This document shows positions 5,554 through 62,235 of a stretch of 64,000 nucleotides of DNA, piece by piece. The position numbers and the translations under genes are program-made. The DNA is from a virus. Taxonomy: Duplodnaviria; Heunggongvirae; Uroviricota; Caudoviricetes. The DNA lies in IMG/VR virus record IMGVR_UViG_3300029543_000205, positions 5,606 through 69,605 of that record, one strand, 5' to 3'. How positions within the stretch are numbered: position 1 is the first letter of the stretch; every line of letters begins with the position of its first letter. The notes under the pieces were generated by a model. The model did not search any database and was not told the origin of the DNA. It saw nothing but the letters and a program-made list of their open reading frames with translations.

Positions 5554-7800
5554 TTATTTTTCTGATACCCTACGGGCAATTACCTTTCCAGATAAGCTCT
5601 GTGAGAAATTAACAATGTGGCGGTAGATATTTACCTTTAATCCGGGGCGGTATGCGTTCTCTTGATAAACAATGTCGTTCGCATCAATCTCTGGATTTCC
5701 ACGGGTATTGTATTCGTACTCAATACCGGCGTTGTAATAATCCCCAAGCCAGTCTGCCAAGTGGTTTGCTGTTTCCATATCGCTTACCAGAGGATTTTTC
5801 CATGTTATGGTCTTTCCTCTGCTATTGAGCGTTTTTACGGCATACTGCTCAACAATGTTGTATCTGTGTCCTATAATTTCAAACTGGTACTTGCCAGTAA
5901 TCAGAAACTTAACTGTCACATAATAATCTCCGCTTTCTACAATGCTGACGTTTGATGCTGAGGAATTGAACGTAGCTCTGCATCCATAAGTCGGATCTCC
6001 GAGATAATACGTCTGAATATCTCCCTTTACTGCCTCCGTCTCTTCGCTGATAAGAGTTTCTTCCGCGGTTCCTTTCTGGTAGGAATAGCATGGCACTCTG
6101 ACCGCCTTGACAAGCTCCTGCTTGATTGATTTCGGAGAAGAGGTCATATCCTGCCTTTCCATTGTGAAATCCGTTATATCGCCAAATGAGAAGTAATCAA
6201 CGACTATGCGGTTGAATGGTTCTTTTGTCTTTGTAAACTCAATCTCCAACAAATCAAAATCATCAAAATCGTGCTGCACTATCAGCCTCTTTGTAATGTC
6301 CGAATTTACCTCATACTCATCCACCTTTTTGCCGTCATTGAAAGTTCTGAATATAATTCCGTCCGGCAGCGTAGAGCCGAACATTAACTGCAATCCATAG
6401 TACATACAGGCGGTTTCCTGAGTTATGTAGATAATCGGATTTTCTTCAAATAGGCAATCCTTATTGGACTGCTGTAATGAAATATATCCGGTATACTTAT
6501 CTGCCTTACTCTGGTTCTCCGGGAGATAATACATTTCTGCATTTACAGTGGTGTAGTTGTGCGCAAATGAAGCGTACTCCTGTTTTGCAGTCTCACTCTT
6601 TATATTCCGAACATGGGAATACTCTGTCTCTCCGTTGCACGTTATGTCGTACTCTGGGGCGAATGAGGATTTAATCTGCGGTCTACCGTACCGGTTCTGT
6701 GAAAGAACACATCGGCAGGCATTTGCGATAATCTGCAAGGCCTCTTTGTGCTTAACCCTCGGTATGGGGTTTTTCGTGGTTGACTTTTTGAGGTACGGAT
6801 CAATGTAGTATTCATCAATTCCTGCATCCTGAAAGACCAATTCTGCTGCATGGTAATATGTGATTCCTGCCGGAGCATAACAGCCTTTGTAATATTCTTC
6901 GTCCATGTTTCTGAACAGATCCTGACACCTTATCGTTGCCGAGTAATCATCACTTTCCCATGCACTACACTGTAACTTTGCCCCTCTTATCCATTCGATA
7001 GTGTCTGAGTTCGGCAACTGATAACCGTACCAGACATACATCTCCTGTCCTGTCTCCAAGAAGTTGATTGCTGAGTTTGGGTTGTCTACATTGAAATACT
7101 GATCGTAGTTCTGCAGCTTAACCATAAAATCTATCTGTGGAACATCCTCACAAATCGGGGATATGTAGCTGTCTAATTTAGAGTCCATAATATCGTCATT
7201 GTAATAAACAAGACCGTAGCCTAACTGAATTGAATAAATCCTCAGTCTGGAATATGGATTTTTCATCTTATAGAAGATGAATTTTATATATGTGGTATTC
7301 TCTAACACCTGTTCTGTGCTGAACTCTGACTGATCGTTGTCAACAATCTCTATTCTCTGTCCGCTACTCGTGAGTATGTCGAACCGGGTAGGATAAACCT
7401 CTCCAAAATTGATAGTCAGTCCTTTAATGTCCGTTGCTACAACATTCAGTTCGATAAGCAGCTCATATCCGCTTGCCGGAATCAGAGGCTTACTTATCAA
7501 ACCGGTGTCGTAGTAATTCCCGGAAGTATTCTCTCTTGGTAGAAAATACATAGAGCCATCTACCTTTGTGAAATCCTGCTCCAATGTGGCATATACGGTT
7601 GTCTCTTTTCGCTGACCGAATAAACCGGTCTGCTTTGAATAGTAGGCAAAGTTGTTACCCATGACGGTTGCATTGGCCTGTGCTTCCTGATTTACCAGAC
7701 CGAATGAAATCATCATATATGATCGCTCTCTTAGAGAGCTTTTCATGCTTGCCTTGTATTCATTTGATACTTTCTGCATACCATCACTCTCCGCAATCAA
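5554..7800 (-). CDS. large tail protein (Tal/minor structural protein-like)
   Basis: 748 aa immediately downstream of tape measure and small tail component, canonical siphovirus position. Confidence 0.5.
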   Translation of the reverse strand: MIAESDGMQKVSNEYKASMKSSLRERSYMMISFGLVNQEAQANATVMGNNFAYYSKQTGLFGQRKETTVYATLEQDFTKVDGSMYFLPRENTSGNYYDTGLISKPLIPASGYELLIELNVVATDIKGLTINFGEVYPTRFDILTSSGQRIEIVDNDQSEFSTEQVLENTTYIKFIFYKMKNPYSRLRIYSIQLGYGLVYYNDDIMDSKLDSYISPICEDVPQIDFMVKLQNYDQYFNVDNPNSAINFLETGQEMYVWYGYQLPNSDTIEWIRGAKLQCSAWESDDYSATIRCQDLFRNMDEEYYKGCYAPAGITYYHAAELVFQDAGIDEYYIDPYLKKSTTKNPIPRVKHKEALQIIANACRCVLSQNRYGRPQIKSSFAPEYDITCNGETEYSHVRNIKSETAKQEYASFAHNYTTVNAEMYYLPENQSKADKYTGYISLQQSNKDCLFEENPIIYITQETACMYYGLQLMFGSTLPDGIIFRTFNDGKKVDEYEVNSDITKRLIVQHDFDDFDLLEIEFTKTKEPFNRIVVDYFSFGDITDFTMERQDMTSSPKSIKQELVKAVRVPCYSYQKGTAEETLISEETEAVKGDIQTYYLGDPTYGCRATFNSSASNVSIVESGDYYVTVKFLITGKYQFEIIGHRYNIVEQYAVKTLNSRGKTITWKNPLVSDMETANHLADWLGDYYNAGIEYEYNTRGNPEIDANDIVYQENAYRPGLKVNIYRHIVNFSQSLSGKVIARRVSEK

Positions 7801-15960: not shown

Positions 15961-16199
15961 TCTTACCCTTGCTGAGTTAAAAACTCTGCGATCAGCTTTG
16001 CTTTTACGGTTTCTTTCATGTCATACCCACGTTCCGTTGCGATAGCCTTAATCTGCGCTACTGTCAGAGCGTTAAGTTCTTCCTCTGTGTATTTCTTGTC
16101 AGTAGCCGTCTCTTCTGAAACCGCATCCGTTGATGTGGAAACAGAAGAATCAACTACCTCGGAACTACCGTCAAGGGTATGACCTGTTATTCCCCCCCC
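15961..16199 (-). other. candidate -1 frameshift C-terminal extension of major capsid protein (75 codons, Rho_N/SAP-like helical motif)
   Basis: G8 tract (plus C8 16192-16199) two codons before capsid stop; -1 frame open to TAA at 15961-15963 encoding ...KKYTEEELNALTVAQIKAIATERGYD...; no ATG start for that ORF. Confidence 0.35.
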
Positions 16200-17182
16200 G
16201 CTGTACCTGTTGTACCGCTTGCCGTGATCTTGCTAGGAAGATCTGTGGAAATATTAGTGAACTTCGCACTCATCCACTCAGGACCGTGATCCAGACCGAT
16301 CTGACCGAAGATCTGATAAGTTTCTCCTGCGCCTGTCTTAGCAAGCTGCTCTAAGAAGAAATTACCCTTACCAGGAACCATCTGATGAACAGGAGCCATG
16401 ATGGACGGATCGAACAGAACGGCAGTGCCGGCAGGCATGGTATCGAACAATGCGACTGCCACCTCTCCAAGAGGGGTTACTACGGTCTGTAACTTGATAC
16501 CGTTTACTTCTCTTCCGAGAGGAACGATAGTCAGGTTGTTCTGCTGAGCGTCAAGGTTGAGCTGCAACATAGTGGTTGCATCTACACCGAGAACGATGTT
16601 ATCTGTCTTTGCTCCCTGATCGTGAATGGACTTTAATCCCTCTGCTACAAGCCAGTAGGTAAGAGGTTTCTTTGCGAGATCGAGTATGTTGGTTGTAATC
16701 GCAGTCAGAAGTCCTCTGGTCTGGTTTGCCTCTGCATCAGTAGTAGCTTTCGCATACTTACCATTGATGAAAGTGTACTCAATATCCTGTGCGATCTTCG
16801 CCATTCTACGAGATACCTGGAACGCAAGTTCATCCATAGGATTTGCCTGCTGACCGGCTACGTTGATACCCTGCAGTGTACCCATGTTGCTCTGCTTTCC
16901 ATAAGAAATCGCTACGGACTTCTGGAAGATCTGAGTTACGTTGGTAAGCTGACTTCTGGTTACGATTTCCGGCTGTGGAGCGGTAAGGGATGCTGTCTCA
17001 GAAATCTTAGGCTGTTCGCCTGTTTCTGTGTTGTACTCCTGACCGCAAGTAAACTCTACATGATTGGTTACAAGAGGTCTTGCGCCAATCATAGTAGAGA
17101 ACGGTGTTGCCTGCTGCCCTTTAGCGAATAACATTCCGCTAAAATTAGGAACAGCGAATGATGTTGCTGTGCCCTGTGCCAT
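16187..17182 (-). CDS. major capsid protein
   Basis: 331 aa downstream of scaffold-like gene; size/position; Ala/Gly/Thr-rich. Confidence 0.65.
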   Translation of the reverse strand: MAQGTATSFAVPNFSGMLFAKGQQATPFSTMIGARPLVTNHVEFTCGQEYNTETGEQPKISETASLTAPQPEIVTRSQLTNVTQIFQKSVAISYGKQSNMGTLQGINVAGQQANPMDELAFQVSRRMAKIAQDIEYTFINGKYAKATTDAEANQTRGLLTAITTNILDLAKKPLTYWLVAEGLKSIHDQGAKTDNIVLGVDATTMLQLNLDAQQNNLTIVPLGREVNGIKLQTVVTPLGEVAVALFDTMPAGTAVLFDPSIMAPVHQMVPGKGNFFLEQLAKTGAGETYQIFGQIGLDHGPEWMSAKFTNISTDLPSKITASGTTGTAGGE

Positions 17183-45556: not shown

Positions 45557-45838
45557 ACCGATAGAAACGAGGCGCGCGCCCTCCGGGGCGCTCCCTCTCA
45601 AAATATAGGAGATCAACACCATGAGAAAAGAATACGCAAGTTATAACCGTTACGGATATAGAAATTTAACTATTATTATTGATACAGACAAAAAGCACGT
45701 TGCATTATATCACGGATGCACGGCACCGATCAGCAAGCCGGACAAGAAAACAAGTTCTAAATTTATCCGGGAACAATTCGAGACATTGACCGCCGCCGGA
45801 TTCACAAGCGAAGTATTTTAGAAAGGGGGGGTTATATT

Positions 45839-46807
45839 ATGAATGAATCTATTAAAAATCTTTTATCATTGAATAATAAGGCTTTACAGTTTGCGCATGA
45901 TGTAGACGGATTCGACTTTGAAAAACCTTACTTTATTGCAGAATCGGCGGACCGTTTCACAGTAAACACCGTTAAAAAGGCAGTAGCCGAAGCGATGAAC
46001 CCGGCAAAATGTAAAATTGTTTTGTTTGTCGTTCCTGGTGTGCATTGTTATAAATCCGGTTTATATTATGCAATATTAAGCAGCGGAAAATTTGACGGGA
46101 CGCGCCGCGATGGTGCGAAGTATTGGAACTATCGCACCACTACCGGAGAATTTGACATAGATCATTGCTATGGTGTCGGAGACTTTGAAGAGCTGCGCAA
46201 GAAACAGACTGAAAGCATTTTTATAATCGCCCAGGATAAATGCTATATAAAAGAACCAGAAACAAAAATATTTAATGTTTCCCGACGGTATACTCTGGAC
46301 GATGCCAGAAAGAGCACGGACGGACGCGGAAACGATTATATAAAATCCTTAGTATTGACCGCCACGGATGGCAGCGGCGCACGTTTCACATACGAACCAT
46401 ACAACACATTTTACGGAAATGAAAAACGATCCGCGGATATTGCGGACCATATCGACAAAAGCGGCTACTTGTTACGCCCTCACCGCTTCGCATTGATGGA
46501 GAGAGCGGAAACATTGAGACGGACCAGAAAACAGGCAGAGGCAGACAACGCCGACTATACAAATGAGATAGCCGAACTGCAGAAACGCATTGACGCAACT
46601 AGAATTTTATTATCTAACGCCGTTTTGAATTGTCAGGACGCAACCGCGGCGCGTGGCGTGTCTAACAAGATGAATTATTTTTCTTATGCTCTTTCTTACT
46701 TTGAGACATTCAAAGAAAAAATAAACAGCAAGCGTTATGCAAGTATTGAGCGCATCAATTCAGATATTGAAGATATAAAAGATAAGTTGGATCATTGCGC
46801 AGAGTAA
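45839..46807 (+). CDS. hypothetical protein
   Basis: 322-aa ORF; G7 tract in its RBS-spacer (45825-45831). Confidence 0.45.
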   Translation: MNESIKNLLSLNNKALQFAHDVDGFDFEKPYFIAESADRFTVNTVKKAVAEAMNPAKCKIVLFVVPGVHCYKSGLYYAILSSGKFDGTRRDGAKYWNYRTTTGEFDIDHCYGVGDFEELRKKQTESIFIIAQDKCYIKEPETKIFNVSRRYTLDDARKSTDGRGNDYIKSLVLTATDGSGARFTYEPYNTFYGNEKRSADIADHIDKSGYLLRPHRFALMERAETLRRTRKQAEADNADYTNEIAELQKRIDATRILLSNAVLNCQDATAARGVSNKMNYFSYALSYFETFKEKINSKRYASIERINSDIEDIKDKLDHCAE

Positions 46808-48621: not shown

Positions 48622-49908
48622 GTGTACTACCGGCATCCGGTAAAGAAAGGATTGAGAACTATGAGAAAGAAAAGCGTATTTGTAAACTGTATGGAGACAT
48701 TAACAGCAAATAGAAAGCATAATGAGGCCCGTGCTCTCCTTAATGCAGGACTGAAAGAGTCCGCACAGAGGCAGACAGCCACCACCGCTCCGGCGTATGT
48801 TCTTACAAAGCCGTATGTGTTCCCGGCAGTTGATGGAAATATGACTTATCATACCTCATGGGGATCTCACGGAGTAAAAGAAGAGGCTGAAACCATATTG
48901 AGCGTATTGAGTTCTTTCCGCCTCCGCTCCACCCTTGTAAAAATCAATCAGGGGCCACGCCTCACTCAGTATGTTATTGAACCGGCTCCCGGAACTCAGG
49001 TGCAAGCCATTTTGAGACATGAAAAGGAATTTCAGGCAGCTTTACATTGCAACGCCTCTTTGAGATTTGATAATGGCTATGTGTATATTGAGGTTCCGAC
49101 CGGTACAGAAACCGTGTTCCTGGGCGATATGCTCATTGATAATGAGTATCAGTCCTCCAGTGGTTTCACAATGGCGATCGGCATGGCGGTTGACGGTTCC
49201 AAGCATTACATTGATATTGCCAAGGCTTGCCATATCCTCATTTCTGGTATGACCGGATCTGGTAAATCAATCGTTCTGCATAACCTCATCTTGTCTCTAT
49301 TGATGAAAAAGAATCCGGCACAGATGCACTTATATATCATTGACCCAAAAGCAACAGAGTTTGAGTATTACAAGAACCTTGCAGCGTGTACGGTTGTATC
49401 TGAGGTAAATGGCGCGGTTGAACTATTGAAGAACCTTTGTATTGAGATGGATCGCCGCTACTCCATTCTTGCCTCTACCGGCTGCCGTGACATTGACAGC
49501 TATAATACAAAGTTCGCAGATGCTCCTATGAGGCGTGACATAGTTTTCATTGATGAGTTATCCGACCTTATGAGCATGGGTGGAAAATCCGTTGAGGGAC
49601 ATATTGTAAGAATTGCACAGAAAGCCCGTGCCTGTGGCATCCACCTTGTAATCGCTACACAGTACCCGGTTGCAAAGGTTGTTACTGGATTGATTAAGGC
49701 AAATATGCCTACAAAGATCTGTCTCCGTGTTGGTACAGTCACAAACTCTATGGTCGCATTGGATATGGCCGGCGGCGAAAAGCTCATGGGTCATGGCGAT
49801 ATGCTCTTTCTCCCTAACGGTTCTCTTTCCCCAGTAAGGTTGCAAGGTGGGTTTGTATCTGAGACGGCAATCAACAATGTCGTTGCCGGTTTGATGAAAA
49901 ATCAGTAA
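48622..49908 (+). CDS. FtsK/SpoIIIE-family DNA translocase ATPase
   Basis: Walker A ISGMTGSGKS, Walker B VFIDELSDLM, IATQ motif. Confidence 0.7.
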   Translation: MYYRHPVKKGLRTMRKKSVFVNCMETLTANRKHNEARALLNAGLKESAQRQTATTAPAYVLTKPYVFPAVDGNMTYHTSWGSHGVKEEAETILSVLSSFRLRSTLVKINQGPRLTQYVIEPAPGTQVQAILRHEKEFQAALHCNASLRFDNGYVYIEVPTGTETVFLGDMLIDNEYQSSSGFTMAIGMAVDGSKHYIDIAKACHILISGMTGSGKSIVLHNLILSLLMKKNPAQMHLYIIDPKATEFEYYKNLAACTVVSEVNGAVELLKNLCIEMDRRYSILASTGCRDIDSYNTKFADAPMRRDIVFIDELSDLMSMGGKSVEGHIVRIAQKARACGIHLVIATQYPVAKVVTGLIKANMPTKICLRVGTVTNSMVALDMAGGEKLMGHGDMLFLPNGSLSPVRLQGGFVSETAINNVVAGLMKNQ

Positions 49909-51490: not shown

Positions 51491-52696
51491 ATGAGCAATT
51501 TGAAAGTATACGCAAAAACCATTGAAGATGAAGCACTTGAACAGATCAACACTCTTCTGTCTCAGGATGCCTTTAAGGACTGCAAGGTTCGCATTATGCC
51601 GGATGTTCATGCCGGTAAAGGCTGTGTAATCGGATTTACGGCAGACCTAGGAGAAAAGGTTATCCCGAACATTGTCGGAGTAGATATTGGCTGTGGTATG
51701 CTTTGCGTGAGCATCGGACACGGAGACATTGATTTTGAAAAATTGGATAATGTCATTCGTACCTATGTCCCTAGTGGAAGAAATGTGCATGACGGTAGAG
51801 TTATGCGTTTTGGCGAATTGCAAGACCTCTACTGTTACCGCGAATTGAGAGACACCAAGCGTATTGAGCGTTCTATCGGAACTCTCGGCGGTGGGAACCA
51901 TTTCATTGAGGTTGATGTTGTTGAGGATGGATATAAGTATCTGGTTATTCATACCGGTAGCCGTAACCTCGGAAAACAGGTGGCGGACTATTACCAGAAT
52001 CTTGCCTACGAATTGATGTATGGCAAGGACGATTTGTATGAGCGTCAGGATAAGCTCATTGAGGAATACAAGGCTGCCGGAAGAAAGTCTGAGATTGAGG
52101 CTGCCTTAAAAGAATTGCGTGAGAATTTCCGTGCCACCACTCCGAAGTTTCCAAAGGATCTGTGCTACTTGGATGGAAAGTACCGGGAGCAGTATTTACA
52201 TGATATGCGTATCTGCCAGAAGTTTGCATATTTCAACCGTGTGATGATCGCGCAAATCATCTGCAATCACATGGGATGGGGAGTTGATGCTGATATGCCG
52301 GATTACTTTGAGTGCATCCACAACTATATAGACCACGATTCTAATATTGTCCGCAAGGGTGCTATCTCTGCAAAACTCGGAGAAAAGGTACTTATCCCTA
52401 TCAATATGCGTGACGGCTGTATTCTCGGAACCGGAAAGGGCAATGATGATTGGAACTGTTCTGCGCCGCATGGAGCTGGCCGGCTTATGTCCCGGAGCAA
52501 AGCAAAGGAAACTCTCTCTTTGAGCGATTATTCTGCTTCTATGTCCGGCATCTACACCACTTCCGTATCTGAGGAAACCATAGATGAAGCTCCGATGGCA
52601 TACAAACCGATTGAGGAAATCATGGACTGTATCAAAGATACCGTTGATATTCTCGCAGTATTGAAGCCGGTCTATAATTTCAAGGCGAGCGAATAA
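51491..52696 (+). CDS. rtcB: RtcB-family RNA ligase
   Basis: MPDVHAGKG, GGGNHFIE, APHGAGR hallmark motifs; 401 aa. Confidence 0.8.
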   Translation: MSNLKVYAKTIEDEALEQINTLLSQDAFKDCKVRIMPDVHAGKGCVIGFTADLGEKVIPNIVGVDIGCGMLCVSIGHGDIDFEKLDNVIRTYVPSGRNVHDGRVMRFGELQDLYCYRELRDTKRIERSIGTLGGGNHFIEVDVVEDGYKYLVIHTGSRNLGKQVADYYQNLAYELMYGKDDLYERQDKLIEEYKAAGRKSEIEAALKELRENFRATTPKFPKDLCYLDGKYREQYLHDMRICQKFAYFNRVMIAQIICNHMGWGVDADMPDYFECIHNYIDHDSNIVRKGAISAKLGEKVLIPINMRDGCILGTGKGNDDWNCSAPHGAGRLMSRSKAKETLSLSDYSASMSGIYTTSVSEETIDEAPMAYKPIEEIMDCIKDTVDILAVLKPVYNFKASE

Positions 52697-58400: not shown

Positions 58401-59099
58401 TTATCTGTTATCGTTCCTTTCCATTCCCAAATCAAATAGTGATAATTGTGCTCTTTCTCTTTCTAACCTTGTATTTGAGACCTCATACATCTCGGTATCT
58501 ATCTCAAACCCTACAAACTTCACACCGTTTCTATGGTATGCTATGAGGCTTGATGCACTTCCTACATGGGTATCAAGTACCGGTCCTGTTATCCCGAATG
58601 TCCGCAAAAGATATTCGTATAATGCAATCGGTTTCTGTGTTGGGTGTATCTTTTTCTCTGTATTTGCCCCACCGGTGTTAGAATATCTGAACAGCTTTGC
58701 AGGCAAATCGTATGAAGTCCATGCCATCTCCACTTGTGAGAACGCTTCCCATGGCTGTACCTTGTCCCACACAACAAAACATTTTGTCGGTGGCAATCGG
58801 AAATAGTTGCCGCCCCATATAATTTGATTCTTCGATACCCGGAGCAGTTCTTTGAAATAATCTTCCTCAGGAGGTTCGTTATCCCATTGTCCTGCTCCTT
58901 TGCTTCGCTTTATCCGTGAAGCTGTACTTTCTGCCGGGTAGCCATTCTTTGACCGGCTCTTATTGGTTCCCATTGCCATGTTTGGCGCATTGATACCGTA
59001 TGGAGGATCCACGATAGCAACCTCAAAATATTTATCAGGAAATCGTCTCATTCCCTCCATGCAGTCCATGTTCCAGTAACCATAGTCTAATTTATCCAC
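58401..59099 (-). CDS. DNA methyltransferase (N6-adenine/N4-cytosine, beta class)
   Basis: Motif IV VDPPYG N-terminal, motif I LDTHVGSASS C-terminal. Confidence 0.7.
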   Translation of the reverse strand: MDKLDYGYWNMDCMEGMRRFPDKYFEVAIVDPPYGINAPNMAMGTNKSRSKNGYPAESTASRIKRSKGAGQWDNEPPEEDYFKELLRVSKNQIIWGGNYFRLPPTKCFVVWDKVQPWEAFSQVEMAWTSYDLPAKLFRYSNTGGANTEKKIHPTQKPIALYEYLLRTFGITGPVLDTHVGSASSLIAYHRNGVKFVGFEIDTEMYEVSNTRLERERAQLSLFDLGMERNDNR

Positions 59100-59691
59100 T
59101 TAATGATGCTCACTCCCTCGTAACCTTTCTCAAACTCGTACCATGCGTATGCTACTGCACTACCGCCTCCGGCTTTCATTTCTTCAAAATTTCCGTTCTT
59201 GGCACATAAGATTCTGCTTCGAGATACATATACACATTTCGGAGGGTATTTCTTGAACAGTTCTCCCCTTGCCTTTCCCTCTAAGAACTGCAATTTGAGG
59301 AACATAAATACCTTTCTTCCGTCCGGTATCACATTCATAGCGTGTTCAACAAATTCTTTCGCGTATTTATATGGCGGATTCGTGATAATGTCTCCGTCCC
59401 ATATCTCATCAGTCTGCAGAAAATCTACGCCACCCTGTCCGTAACCTCTGTCGATAAGGTCTGTGCTCCGCACATCATACCCACGCTCTTTGAGTTTTTC
59501 AGATAAATGTCCTTGTCCTGCTGCGCACTCCCACACTTTTTGGCTGAGTACCGCCCCCCCGATAAGAGTGCGTCTATTGCGATAGGATCTGTTGCGTAGT
59601 AATCATTTGTTTCCCTTTCTTTGTCTGTATGGTTTGAAGCACCAAGGGTTGTGAAGATGCTTTTACCATTTCCGGTCCAATCTTTTCCCAT
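59087..59691 (-). pseudogene. phage N6-adenine DNA methyltransferase interrupted at a G7 tract (phase-OFF); two ORF fragments
   Basis: N-terminal fragment NDYYATDPIAIDALL..SGG (59425-59817) and C-terminal fragment WECAAGQGHL...IITNPPYK (59087-59536); plus C7 at 59554-59560; +1 G restores one frame. Confidence 0.5.
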
Positions 59692-59695
59692 ATAT

Positions 59696-60233
59696 TCATC
59701 CTTTCTGAATTTCTTCAAATACAATTTTCTGTGGCAATACTCCGTGGCAGACATAAACACTGCTAAACGGAGGATTGAGTGACGGTTTCTGTTCTTCGTA
59801 ACTCTTGAAATATGCAACTCTTCGGTTCATATACATAATCTCAAATTCGTGGTCTCTGAACATTTCAAACCGTCTCTGGCTTTCAAACAATCCAACCACT
59901 CCAACAAGCATTGCAAACGGTTTATCTAGGTCAAATAATCTCTCTATCACTTCTGTTTTCATAGAGTAAGGCGGATTACTTATGATGTAATCGCACCATT
60001 GCACCATTTCTCCTTGTTTCTGATACTGGAAGAAATCGTCTCCGTACTTTATGTGGGTTGCTTTTACGTCATACCCCCCCCCGATTGAAATTTTTGACAA
60101 ACAGGCTGTCCTCTGTATCAAAAGGACACCATATCTTTGCCCCTTTCGGAATGTATTTCATAATCGGTGCAACTGCGTAATCAGGTGTATAGAACTCGTC
60201 ATTGCCGCTTCCGGCCACTTTATCCATTTTCAT
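59696..60233 (-). pseudogene. paralogous phage N6-adenine DNA methyltransferase interrupted at a G9 tract; two ORF fragments
   Basis: N-terminal fragment NDEFYTPDYAVAPIM...NFNRGG (60069-60302), TGA right after tract; C-terminal fragment GGGYDVKATH...IISNPPYS (59696-60121); plus C9 60074-60082; -1 G fuses frames. Confidence 0.5.
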
Positions 60234-60250
60234 GTTTCTTGTCCTTTCCT

Positions 60251-60823
60251 CTACAAATATCCAAATCTGTAACCATATATAGATTCCAATTCTCCCCGGC
60301 ACACCTTACCCACTGAGTTCGGCGGAAGATCGTACTGCCGTTCTGCTTCCCGGCATGAGAAAAATATCTCTTCCTCATCCCCTATACAGATAACCATGCG
60401 ATGTTTCCCCGGCTTGTCCCTGCGGTTTCCGCACTGTACTCTTTTATCAGCCCATCTCAGGTTGTATATGCTGTTGTCGAACCTCTCTCTGTTGTTTATA
60501 TGGTCTACTGTGTCATACCGCCGTCTGTTACCCATGTAGAACGTCTGCATAACTATCTGGTGTCTCTTAAATCGCACTTGGTTTCCGTCTGTATCTGTGA
60601 ACATACTGGAAATATCGTATTTATCTCCGTATGCCATATTGCAGAGGATCCCATTCCGTATGAGCCTACCAAATGATGATATGTAACACTCCATGTTGAA
60701 GTCATGCACGCTCTTTACTTCCAAATTCTCATCAAACTTAACAAGCCGTGTGACTTTTCTCCATGTTTCTTCCTTGTCCGGGTACTTCCGGCGGATATAC
60801 TCAAAAGTTTCTGTTTCTCTCAT
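60251..60823 (-). CDS. HNH homing-endonuclease-like protein
   Basis: VDHINNRERFDNSIYNLRWADKRVQ HNH_3 motif. Confidence 0.6.
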   Translation of the reverse strand: MRETETFEYIRRKYPDKEETWRKVTRLVKFDENLEVKSVHDFNMECYISSFGRLIRNGILCNMAYGDKYDISSMFTDTDGNQVRFKRHQIVMQTFYMGNRRRYDTVDHINNRERFDNSIYNLRWADKRVQCGNRRDKPGKHRMVICIGDEEEIFFSCREAERQYDLPPNSVGKVCRGELESIYGYRFGYL

Positions 60824-61099: not shown

Positions 61100-61630
61100 T
61101 TAATAAAGATTCCACAAAAGCAGTTCTTCGTTTTCTGCCGGGTCGCACTTTTCTTTCCATTCCAGTTTTCTCACTACATCCCATGTTTTCATGCAGATAT
61201 TGGATAAGTCGTACCGGTCGTACACCCTCTTGTCGATAAACAGACGCATATCCAAGTCCTCATCATAGAGATTGAAGCTCATGTATTTCAGATTGCGAAT
61301 ATCTTCATCTGTGGCTTCTGCATGGACTGTTACTGTGATACCGTCCAAGTGTTTCAAAATTACCGGATGATCGTCCATTGTCAGGCAAGCCGTATAAAGA
61401 TAAATTTTCTGTCTCTTATTCTGCTTTTTGAGCATTTTAATGACTGTGTAAAGCTGTGCCGGATTTATCATAGGTTCTCCACCGGTAATCACAACTTTCT
61501 CATAATCCTTTAACGTTGTGATACCGCCAATCACTTTCGCCAATGATGTGTAATCCAATTTGCTGTTGCAGCACCCCGGACACTTCCGGTCGCACTTTGA
61601 TGTGATAATTACTCTCGCTGTCTTTTTCAT
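61100..61630 (-). CDS. radical SAM protein (NrdG/QueE-like small activase)
   Basis: CDRKCPGC CX3CX2C cluster motif and VITGGEP SAM-binding motif. Confidence 0.55.
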   Translation of the reverse strand: MKKTARVIITSKCDRKCPGCCNSKLDYTSLAKVIGGITTLKDYEKVVITGGEPMINPAQLYTVIKMLKKQNKRQKIYLYTACLTMDDHPVILKHLDGITVTVHAEATDEDIRNLKYMSFNLYDEDLDMRLFIDKRVYDRYDLSNICMKTWDVVRKLEWKEKCDPAENEELLLWNLY

Positions 61631-61638
61631 CTTTCCTC

Positions 61639-62235
61639 CTATCTCTGAGCCAAAAGTTCCTCATAAAGTCTCTTGTAGACATCTCTTTCTGCCGTAATCT
61701 TCGCAATTTCCAACTGCGTCTCCACATCCGGCAGAACGGTTTCTTTTACCACAACCGGCTCAGGTTCTTTCTTCTCAGGCTTCTCAACTTCATTTGCAGC
61801 TTCCGCCCATTTCTTTACCAGTTCATTTCCTTTGATGTTGGTTCCAATGCCAATGCTTACTGCAAGTGCCGCATCTATGCGTTTCATTTCAGCCATAGAG
61901 CACTGCCCTATGTAATCCCCAACCTTATCCTTATTCACGGTATCAATCTGTTCACAGAGCACCGTGGACGGATATTTTGAGCTGTTGATTTTAACGTGTG
62001 TCGGCAAGGGTTTCTTCTCCTGGGTTGTAAGATACACAATCTCCAGTATGGGACCGGCATTATTGCCAATATCATTGCTGATGATTACCGCCGGTCTACC
62101 CCCCCCCTGAACATTTCCGCTATATTCGTTATCATTGCGGATATAGAAGATTTCGCCTCTGTAATACTCTTTATTCATGGTTTCCTCCTTAATCCATGCC
62201 GTCATATAAACTCTCTGACGCATAAACCTGTTCAT
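61639..62235 (-). CDS. MazF/PemK-fold protein with C-terminal coiled-coil extension (probable start MNKEYYRG ~62178)
   Basis: GEIFYIRNDNEYSGNVQGGGRPAVIISNDIGNNAGPILEIVYLTT...STVLCEQIDTV matches MazF/PemK core; in-frame G9 tract encodes GGG. Confidence 0.5.
   Translation of the reverse strand: MNRFMRQRVYMTAWIKEETMNKEYYRGEIFYIRNDNEYSGNVQGGGRPAVIISNDIGNNAGPILEIVYLTTQEKKPLPTHVKINSSKYPSTVLCEQIDTVNKDKVGDYIGQCSMAEMKRIDAALAVSIGIGTNIKGNELVKKWAEAANEVEKPEKKEPEPVVVKETVLPDVETQLEIAKITAERDVYKRLYEELLAQR

Follow-up and report, generated by a model that had tools for sequence, protein, structure and literature searches.

The stretch of DNA analysed here, referred to as the window, comprises 64,000 nucleotides (positions 5,606 to 69,605) of the viral record IMGVR_UViG_3300029543_000205. 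It belongs to a tailed phage, of which portal, large terminase, tail, and capsid genes were recognised. At issue are two adjacent genes, A and B, which code for small homologues of DNA methyltransferases and are each interrupted by a run of G residues on the sense strand. Inspection of the sequence and of its open reading frames (ORFs) placed all genes of the methyltransferase region on the minus strand. The features of interest are the following:

59696..60233, minus strand: gene A, a small NPPY-motif DNA methyltransferase homologue of 178 amino acids if its run is G8.
60074..60082, minus strand: run of gene A, G9 on the sense strand (C9 on the plus strand); the in-frame length is G8.
59087..59691, minus strand: gene B, a small NPPY-motif DNA methyltransferase homologue of 201 amino acids if its run is G8.
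59554..59560, minus strand: run of gene B, G7 on the sense strand; the in-frame length is G8.
58401..59099, minus strand: third methyltransferase gene, intact, 232 amino acids, without a run, with a DPPY motif and an overlap of 13 nucleotides with the end of gene B.
61639..62235, minus strand: PemK/MazF-like toxin homologue (Pfam PemK_toxin, 5.7e-23) with an in-frame G9 run at 62099-62107.

Gene A starts with the ATG at position 60233 (MKMDKVAGSGNDEFYTP...), and this start is kept in homologues. Its reading frame passes through KNFNRGG into the G9 run and ends at a stop two codons further on, which results in an N-terminal piece of 54 amino acids. The C-terminal part (YDVKATH...SNPPYS...) is found in another frame that extends down to 59696, and removal of a single G (G8) yields one ORF of 178 amino acids. 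Gene B starts at 59691, four bases past the stop of gene A, and is broken at G7; here, the addition of a single G (G8) yields one ORF of 201 amino acids that extends to 59087 (...DALLSGGAVLSQKVWECAAGQG...TNPPYK...). Both genes contain a mutable simple repeat inside the ORF. An initial annotation of this DNA, made from the sequence alone, had described two tandem methyltransferase genes that are each broken at a sense-strand poly-G tract, and both the layout and the ORFs confirm this description. It had further stated that each gene is split into halves exactly at the homopolymer, and that a change by one G restores a single frame of about 200 residues. The breaks do coincide with the runs and both frames are restored, but the runs are not located in the middle of the genes: G9 corresponds to codons 51-53 of A (around codon 52 of 178) and G7 to codons 44-46 of B (around codon 45 of 201), which places both breaks within the first third of the respective gene. 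Likewise, the expected length applies to B, whereas repaired A has only 178 residues. As had been noted, the two tracts occupy different positions in an alignment of A and B.

Both repaired proteins match PHROG 799 'DNA methyltransferase' (1.8e-64 for B, 2.6e-28 for A), and both contain the NPPY sequence of motif IV. A and B had been regarded as paralogues; they are homologous (E = 1e-7), but share only 27% identical residues and are thus distant relatives rather than recent duplicates. Motif I of B reads WECAAGQG, and the residues N105, P107, and G59/G61 are invariant in 35 homologues. The corresponding position of A is atypical (IWCPFD). The earlier proposal that the run separates an N-terminal motif from motif I is therefore valid for B and not for A, where the motif-I-like sequence KIWCPFDTED lies upstream of the run. 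The third gene (59099..58401) was confirmed as an intact methyltransferase gene downstream of B; its product matches Pfam PF01555 (N6_N4_Mtase, 2.2e-10), phrog_23224, and phrog_67, and gives weak CcrM-like NCBIfam matches.

A database search retrieved P0001, a full-length protein of 201 amino acids that is 99% identical to repaired B; an in-frame B allele of this lineage therefore exists. P0001 belongs to a protein cluster with 92 members. Its AlphaFold model has a predicted local distance difference test (pLDDT) score of 79, and the best matches of the model in the PDB are M.BseCI, M.TaqI, and CamA, with Foldseek E values of about 1e-6 and template-modelling (TM) scores of 0.5-0.57. In the model, the glycines encoded by the run form a loop between a helix and the strand of motif I. 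The structural comparison covered B and gave a fold like that of gamma-class N6-adenine methyltransferases (class I, Rossmann-like), and a sequence search of the PDB with A and B gave nothing significant. Based on the NPPY motif and the model, the label 'adenine methyltransferase' appears reasonable, if putative. Repaired B has at least 8000 database relatives, and the precomputed Pfam column is blank for all 120 of those listed. Two NCBI records name a protein of the B family 'NAD(P)-dependent oxidoreductase'; in view of the NPPY motif and the predicted DNA-methyltransferase-like fold, this name is probably erroneous.

In order to compare run lengths within the lineage of the window, a set of 16 contigs was used, which were taken from IMG/VR, from a scan of metagenome contigs for the flanks of the A run (five further contigs), and from a look-up of P0001 (two further contigs). 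A colinear block of 3.2 kb (window 61640-58414) is shared by eight contigs in IMG/VR. Of these eight, the five that were aligned (L001, L002, L010, L016, L018) are 95-96% identical over this block, which corresponds to 128-149 substitutions. Insertions and deletions occur in these alignments at the two runs only, and the A/T homopolymers contain none. Across the 16 contigs, the A run is G7 in one, G8 in three (L001, L002, and L183, where A is in frame), G9 in eleven, and G10 in one. The B run is G7 in nine, G8 in four, G9 in two, and G10 in one contig. Eight different combinations of A and B lengths occur among the 16 contigs, in agreement with the assumption of two independent switches. The view that the tracts are not a sequencing artefact is also corroborated: the lengths are polymorphic across independent samples of the same lineage, and both in-frame and out-of-frame alleles were found for each gene. 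For example, L001 (A, B run lengths 8,7), L180 (9,8), and L184 (7,9) are separated by no more than 1-2 substitutions over about 1.1 kb. It follows that run length changes much faster than the bases do. The state of the window itself (9,7) was observed again in five other contigs (L010, L013, L026, L046, L182). A megablast search with 25 kb of the window against deposited phages returned only an unannotated fecal fragment of 6.5 kb. In Enterocloster phage CB473P3, the closest match among cultured phages, the A homologue lacks a run.

The B run was found at the same codon in 50 IMG/VR loci, which belong to the clade of the window and to a sister clade of about 87% protein identity. The in-frame length G8 is the most common (20 loci), followed by G7 (16), G9 (11), G10 (2), and G6 (1). 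One further allele has an interrupted, in-frame run (GGGTGGGG), and a clade at about 76% identity lacks the run (GATGGTGGT). If the largest dataset is excluded, a tally of contig names still gives B runs of G6-G10 in 25 contigs from 25 metagenome datasets.

For the A family, 84 loci were surveyed for runs of at least six within the first 300 nucleotides; 29 of them have no such run. Around codon 29, C8 (shifted) occurs 27 times, C9 (in frame) four times, and C10 (shifted) once. Other loci contain C9 at codon 15 or 27, G6 or G7 at codon 29, G7 at codon 63, and C7 at codon 81. Altogether, the runs of this family are located around codons 15, 27-29, 50, 63, and 81, and consist of poly-C or poly-G on the sense strand. 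Judged from this distribution, runs arose several times independently in the A family; their repeated origin as either poly-C or poly-G argues for a property at the level of DNA and not for a specific RNA or codon signal. Among bacteria, members of the family are present in the genomes of Oscillospiraceae and of other Clostridia, and some of the run-bearing A homologues belong to prophages of Oscillospiraceae in culture. This occurrence is given at the level of the family. The in-frame C9 is present in Dysosmobacter segnis BX15, Flintibacter muris, and 'Clostridiaceae bacterium strain 9', and the shifted C8 in Hominicoprocola fusiformis CLA-AA-H269 and in an Oscillospiraceae isolate.

Apart from the runs, the genes are well preserved. 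Resetting the run to G8 gave an intact ORF of 201 amino acids in 49 of the 50 B alleles, and all 36 shifted alleles of the A family were extended to at least 165 amino acids by a change of run length alone. For B, the ratio of nonsynonymous to synonymous substitution rates (dN/dS) is 0.022 in the part before the run and 0.038 in the part after it (33 unique sequences, dS about 0.6-0.8). For the A-family clade with C runs, it is about 0.04 in both parts; among the A sequences of the window's own lineage, dS is only 0.02, which is too little divergence for an estimate of dN/dS. As the run is, with one exception, the sole lesion and dN/dS is 0.02-0.04 on both sides of it, these sequences indicate that A and B are functional genes under strong purifying selection and not pseudogenes. 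The exceptional B homologue is L150 (IMGVR_UViG_3300045988_093856). In this sequence a C-to-G change brings the first run to a length of G9, and the gene contains another run (C7) at nucleotide 447; it seems that runs may arise at sites that had none before.

The base composition of the window is less informative. C runs of nine or more were observed twice, compared to 0.20 expected, and this number was reached in 3 of 100 shuffled sequences; the result for C8 and C7 is similar. Runs of A or of T never exceed seven, although the window contains 56% A+T. The support that composition alone gives to the runs is modest and weak, whereas the comparative evidence is strong.

Taken together, the run comparisons among relatives make it likely that both runs are hypermutable simple-sequence contingency loci, which switch A and B, rather than artefacts or signs of gene decay. 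The observation of two run-split methyltransferase genes is thereby confirmed, and the sequence comparisons support the central claims of the initial annotation. The switch would operate as follows. Slipped-strand mispairing during replication would add G residues to a run or remove them, and the frame of each gene would toggle between a full-length state (G8) and truncated states (G7, G9, G10). Runs that are interrupted but in frame, such as those of L081 and L297, would be locked. A and B would switch independently of each other, the window representing a state with both genes out of frame, and the third methyltransferase, whose gene has no run, would presumably always be made. A population of phages or lysogens would then contain up to four methylation states side by side. 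Such a mixture may serve as a hedge between hosts whose restriction is blocked by methylation and hosts or conditions where methylation is costly or targeted; alternatively, it may have epigenetic effects in lysogens. Slippage, its reversibility, the enzymatic specificity, the selective benefit, and the evasion of restriction are what we infer, and the biochemical and ecological parts of the initial interpretation have the same status.

Several points weigh against this interpretation. Out-of-frame lengths dominate the consensus sequences: A is out of frame (G9) in 11 of the 16 contigs of the lineage, and the shifted C8 is by far the most frequent length at codon 29 of the A family. A simple neutral switch does not predict this. 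In view of the purifying selection, the out-of-frame majority may point either to selection for populations that are mostly off, or to decoding of the 'OFF' alleles by slippage. Moreover, the evidence consists of assembled contigs, and heterogeneity within a population and reversibility are presumed; many of these contigs come from one large IMG dataset, and three of the five additional metagenome contigs have a very low coverage of 1.9-3.4x. Finally, methyltransferase activity and base specificity are predicted for A and B, and the curated family models do not recognise the proteins. In Pfam, A stays below the thresholds (EcoRI_methylase, 22.2 bits at a cut-off of 26.4; Dam, 17.0 at a cut-off of 28.1) and B has no match; NCBIfam models match neither of them.

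The toxin homologue located 2 kb upstream of the methyltransferase genes varies in the same manner. In its relatives the run is G7 in seven, G8 in 13, G9 in 35, G10 in six, and G13 in one case, and one run is interrupted. Judging by these lengths, the early region contains a third contingency locus. Viral contigs were scanned for the exact flanks of this run and of a run in the capsid gene (see below), which gave no match; protein-based scans did find relatives. A more comprehensive model would combine all of these elements to a multi-locus 'phasome', in which at least three G-run switches of the early region, with run length grading expression via slippage of polymerase or ribosome, would bring about a combined DNA- and RNA-level tuning of anti-restriction that is widespread in phages of gut Clostridia. 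We consider this model possible, albeit rather unlikely.

That out-of-frame lengths predominate although the genes are under strong purifying selection could also mean that these lengths are the normal state, and that a low, set level of full-length protein is produced by slippage of RNA polymerase or by a ribosomal -1/+1 frameshift on GGG/CCC. The run would then be an expression rheostat instead of an on/off switch, and such recoding could coexist with variation at the DNA level. In favour of this explanation, a conserved -1 shift appears to take place in the same phage group, on a G run that terminates a capsid gene. For the methyltransferase genes, however, +1, -1, and in-frame lengths occur at the same site in nearly identical genomes, so that there is no conserved direction of the shift. 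In addition, the runs consist of either G or C, depending on the lineage, and occur at different codons, and a stable RNA structure is absent downstream of either run (z = -0.83 and +1.0). The capsid site, by contrast, combines one relation of length and frame in 67 of 80 relatives with a downstream hairpin. Because the frame relation is not conserved among close relatives and downstream structure is lacking, a fixed programmed frameshift was rejected as the main explanation for the methyltransferases. Programmed recoding as the primary role of the runs is accordingly improbable.

An error of sequencing or assembly at genes that are in truth intact, with G8 in both, would be conceivable, as homopolymers are error-prone on some platforms and some relatives were assembled at low coverage. 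The recurrence of the window's state in five other contigs argues against it, as does the spectrum of lengths across 25 separate metagenome datasets. Furthermore, both states are found in genomes that carry the names of cultured strains (the Hominicoprocola contig bears the label cov_28), and the A/T homopolymers of the same alignments are free of insertions and deletions. Since the states recur across samples and in genomes of cultured strains, an assembly artefact was rejected as a general explanation; we regard it as very improbable. Equally hard to credit is the decay of both genes by ordinary inactivating frameshifts at mutable runs: both genes are indeed broken in the window as well as in the majority of its relatives within the lineage, but no second lesion was found in 49 of the 50 B alleles or in any of the 36 shifted A-family alleles, dN/dS is low on both sides of the runs at dS values of up to 0.6-0.8, and in-frame alleles such as those with G8 in B (20 of 50) or those of the P0001 cluster (92 members) are common.

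With respect to the contingency loci proposed here, similar switches are familiar from bacteria. Examples are the Type III mod genes of Haemophilus and Neisseria, known as 'phasevarions', and the poly-G/C runs in methyltransferase genes of Helicobacter pylori and Campylobacter. The genes A and B resemble them in having a homopolymer in the 5' part of the ORF, in the toggling of the frame by run length, and in a run that is polymorphic among close relatives while the gene is otherwise conserved. In contrast to the bacterial systems, A and B belong to a tailed phage or prophage of gut Clostridia and lack a nearby restriction partner. Their products are very small (178 and 201 amino acids) and have no separate target-recognition domain, the family has no Pfam or NCBIfam model, and two switchable genes stand in tandem beside a constitutive one. 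No restriction gene of the res type was found near the methyltransferase genes, whose neighbours are an HNH-endonuclease homologue, a radical S-adenosylmethionine (SAM)-like ORF, and the third methyltransferase gene. With no res partner nearby, the locus was not classified as a phasevarion; it would only work like a phasevarion switch. Repeat-switched methyltransferases as such are well established in bacteria (reviewed in PMC13076061 and PMC10073500).

For phages, hypermutable poly-G tracts were described in the Fletchervirus phages of Campylobacter (Sorensen et al. 2021, Cell Rep 35:109214, as cited in PMC12633550 and PMC12823448). According to these citing works, tracts of 7-11 G in coding genes create phage subpopulations, as would be the case here. 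There, however, the targets are receptor-binding functions and the host itself uses poly-G switching, whereas the targets in the present phages of Firmicutes are DNA-modification genes and a toxin gene. In the coliphages T2 and T4, homopolymers were called 'contingency loci' in a 2025 preprint (PMC12633550). They are likewise short homopolymers in phage genes with a proposed role in bet-hedging, but mostly A/T runs of 6 or more that were studied in the context of anti-defence escape; the present case concerns G/C runs of 7-10 in methyltransferase genes, observed across many metagenomes and not in the laboratory. The same preprint remarks that a poly-G tract is present in the methylase gene of a Bordetella phage (written 'BBP-1'; its reference 48, Liu et al.) and had not been followed up. 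Methyltransferases encoded by phages are included in a 2026 review of the prokaryotic enzymes, which mentions none that switch by repeats. The type of switch is thus familiar, and repeat-switched methyltransferases are rarely documented in phages. The literature searched does not document that phages of gut Clostridia use it on a toxin gene and on two small methyltransferase genes in tandem, in an uncurated family and at many independent positions.

The same device is present in a large, uncurated family of small phage methyltransferases from human-gut metagenomes and from prophages of Oscillospiraceae strains in culture. Provided that the device is functional, each phage population would be epigenetically mixed. 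This would bear on how phages cope with the restriction and the methylation-dependent defences of a community, and also on the reading of phage methylomes and of 'pseudogenes' in metagenome assemblies.

The run of the capsid gene mentioned above seems to be of a different kind. A capsid-like ORF (16187-17182, minus strand) ends with '...GCG GGG GGG GAA TAA' and contains G8 at 16192-16199. Immediately after it, the -1 frame holds an ORF of 75 amino acids, which extends to about 15963 and includes a HeH/Rho-N-like motif. With the same frame relation, a G5 run precedes the stop of the gene in 67 of 80 relatives (GGGGGAATAA in examples), and in two relatives the extension is fused in frame, which gives proteins of 405 and 377 amino acids. 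The stable hairpin that follows the run has a predicted energy of -29.8 kcal/mol (z = -3.06). This run looks like a conserved programmed -1 frameshift site for the production of a long minor form of the capsid protein and not like a contingency locus. A long minor capsid form made by frameshifting is known from gene 10A/10B of T7.

Two further G runs were noted. One of them, G7 at 45825-45831, is on the plus strand, unlike the other runs; it falls within the ribosome-binding region and is situated 7 nucleotides upstream of the ATG of the ORF 45839..46807 (AGAAAGGGGGGGTTATATTATG). The other is G10 at positions 26-35 of L185, a contig of the same lineage (Logan SRR27029223), where it is part of a partial gene upstream of a gene of the Gad2 family (PF26128), in a variable cassette region that adjoins the methyltransferase genes.

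Directly upstream of gene A, at 60251-60823 on the minus strand, lies the HNH-endonuclease homologue (phrog_959). It is followed further upstream by the small radical-SAM-like ORF (61100-61630, minus strand), which has a motif of the CxxxCxxC type. A DUF5131 gene is located downstream of the methyltransferase genes in related contigs. Elsewhere in the window, the ORFs 26316-27794 (minus strand), 48622-49908 and 51491-52696 (both plus strand) code for homologues of the RtcB tRNA ligase (phrog_1075, 2.4e-133), of a 492-amino-acid 'RNA-binding protein' (phrog_850, 6.6e-133), and of FtsK/SpoIIIE-like proteins. The matches of these three ORFs suggest an RNA-repair module that is partly encoded on the opposite strand.

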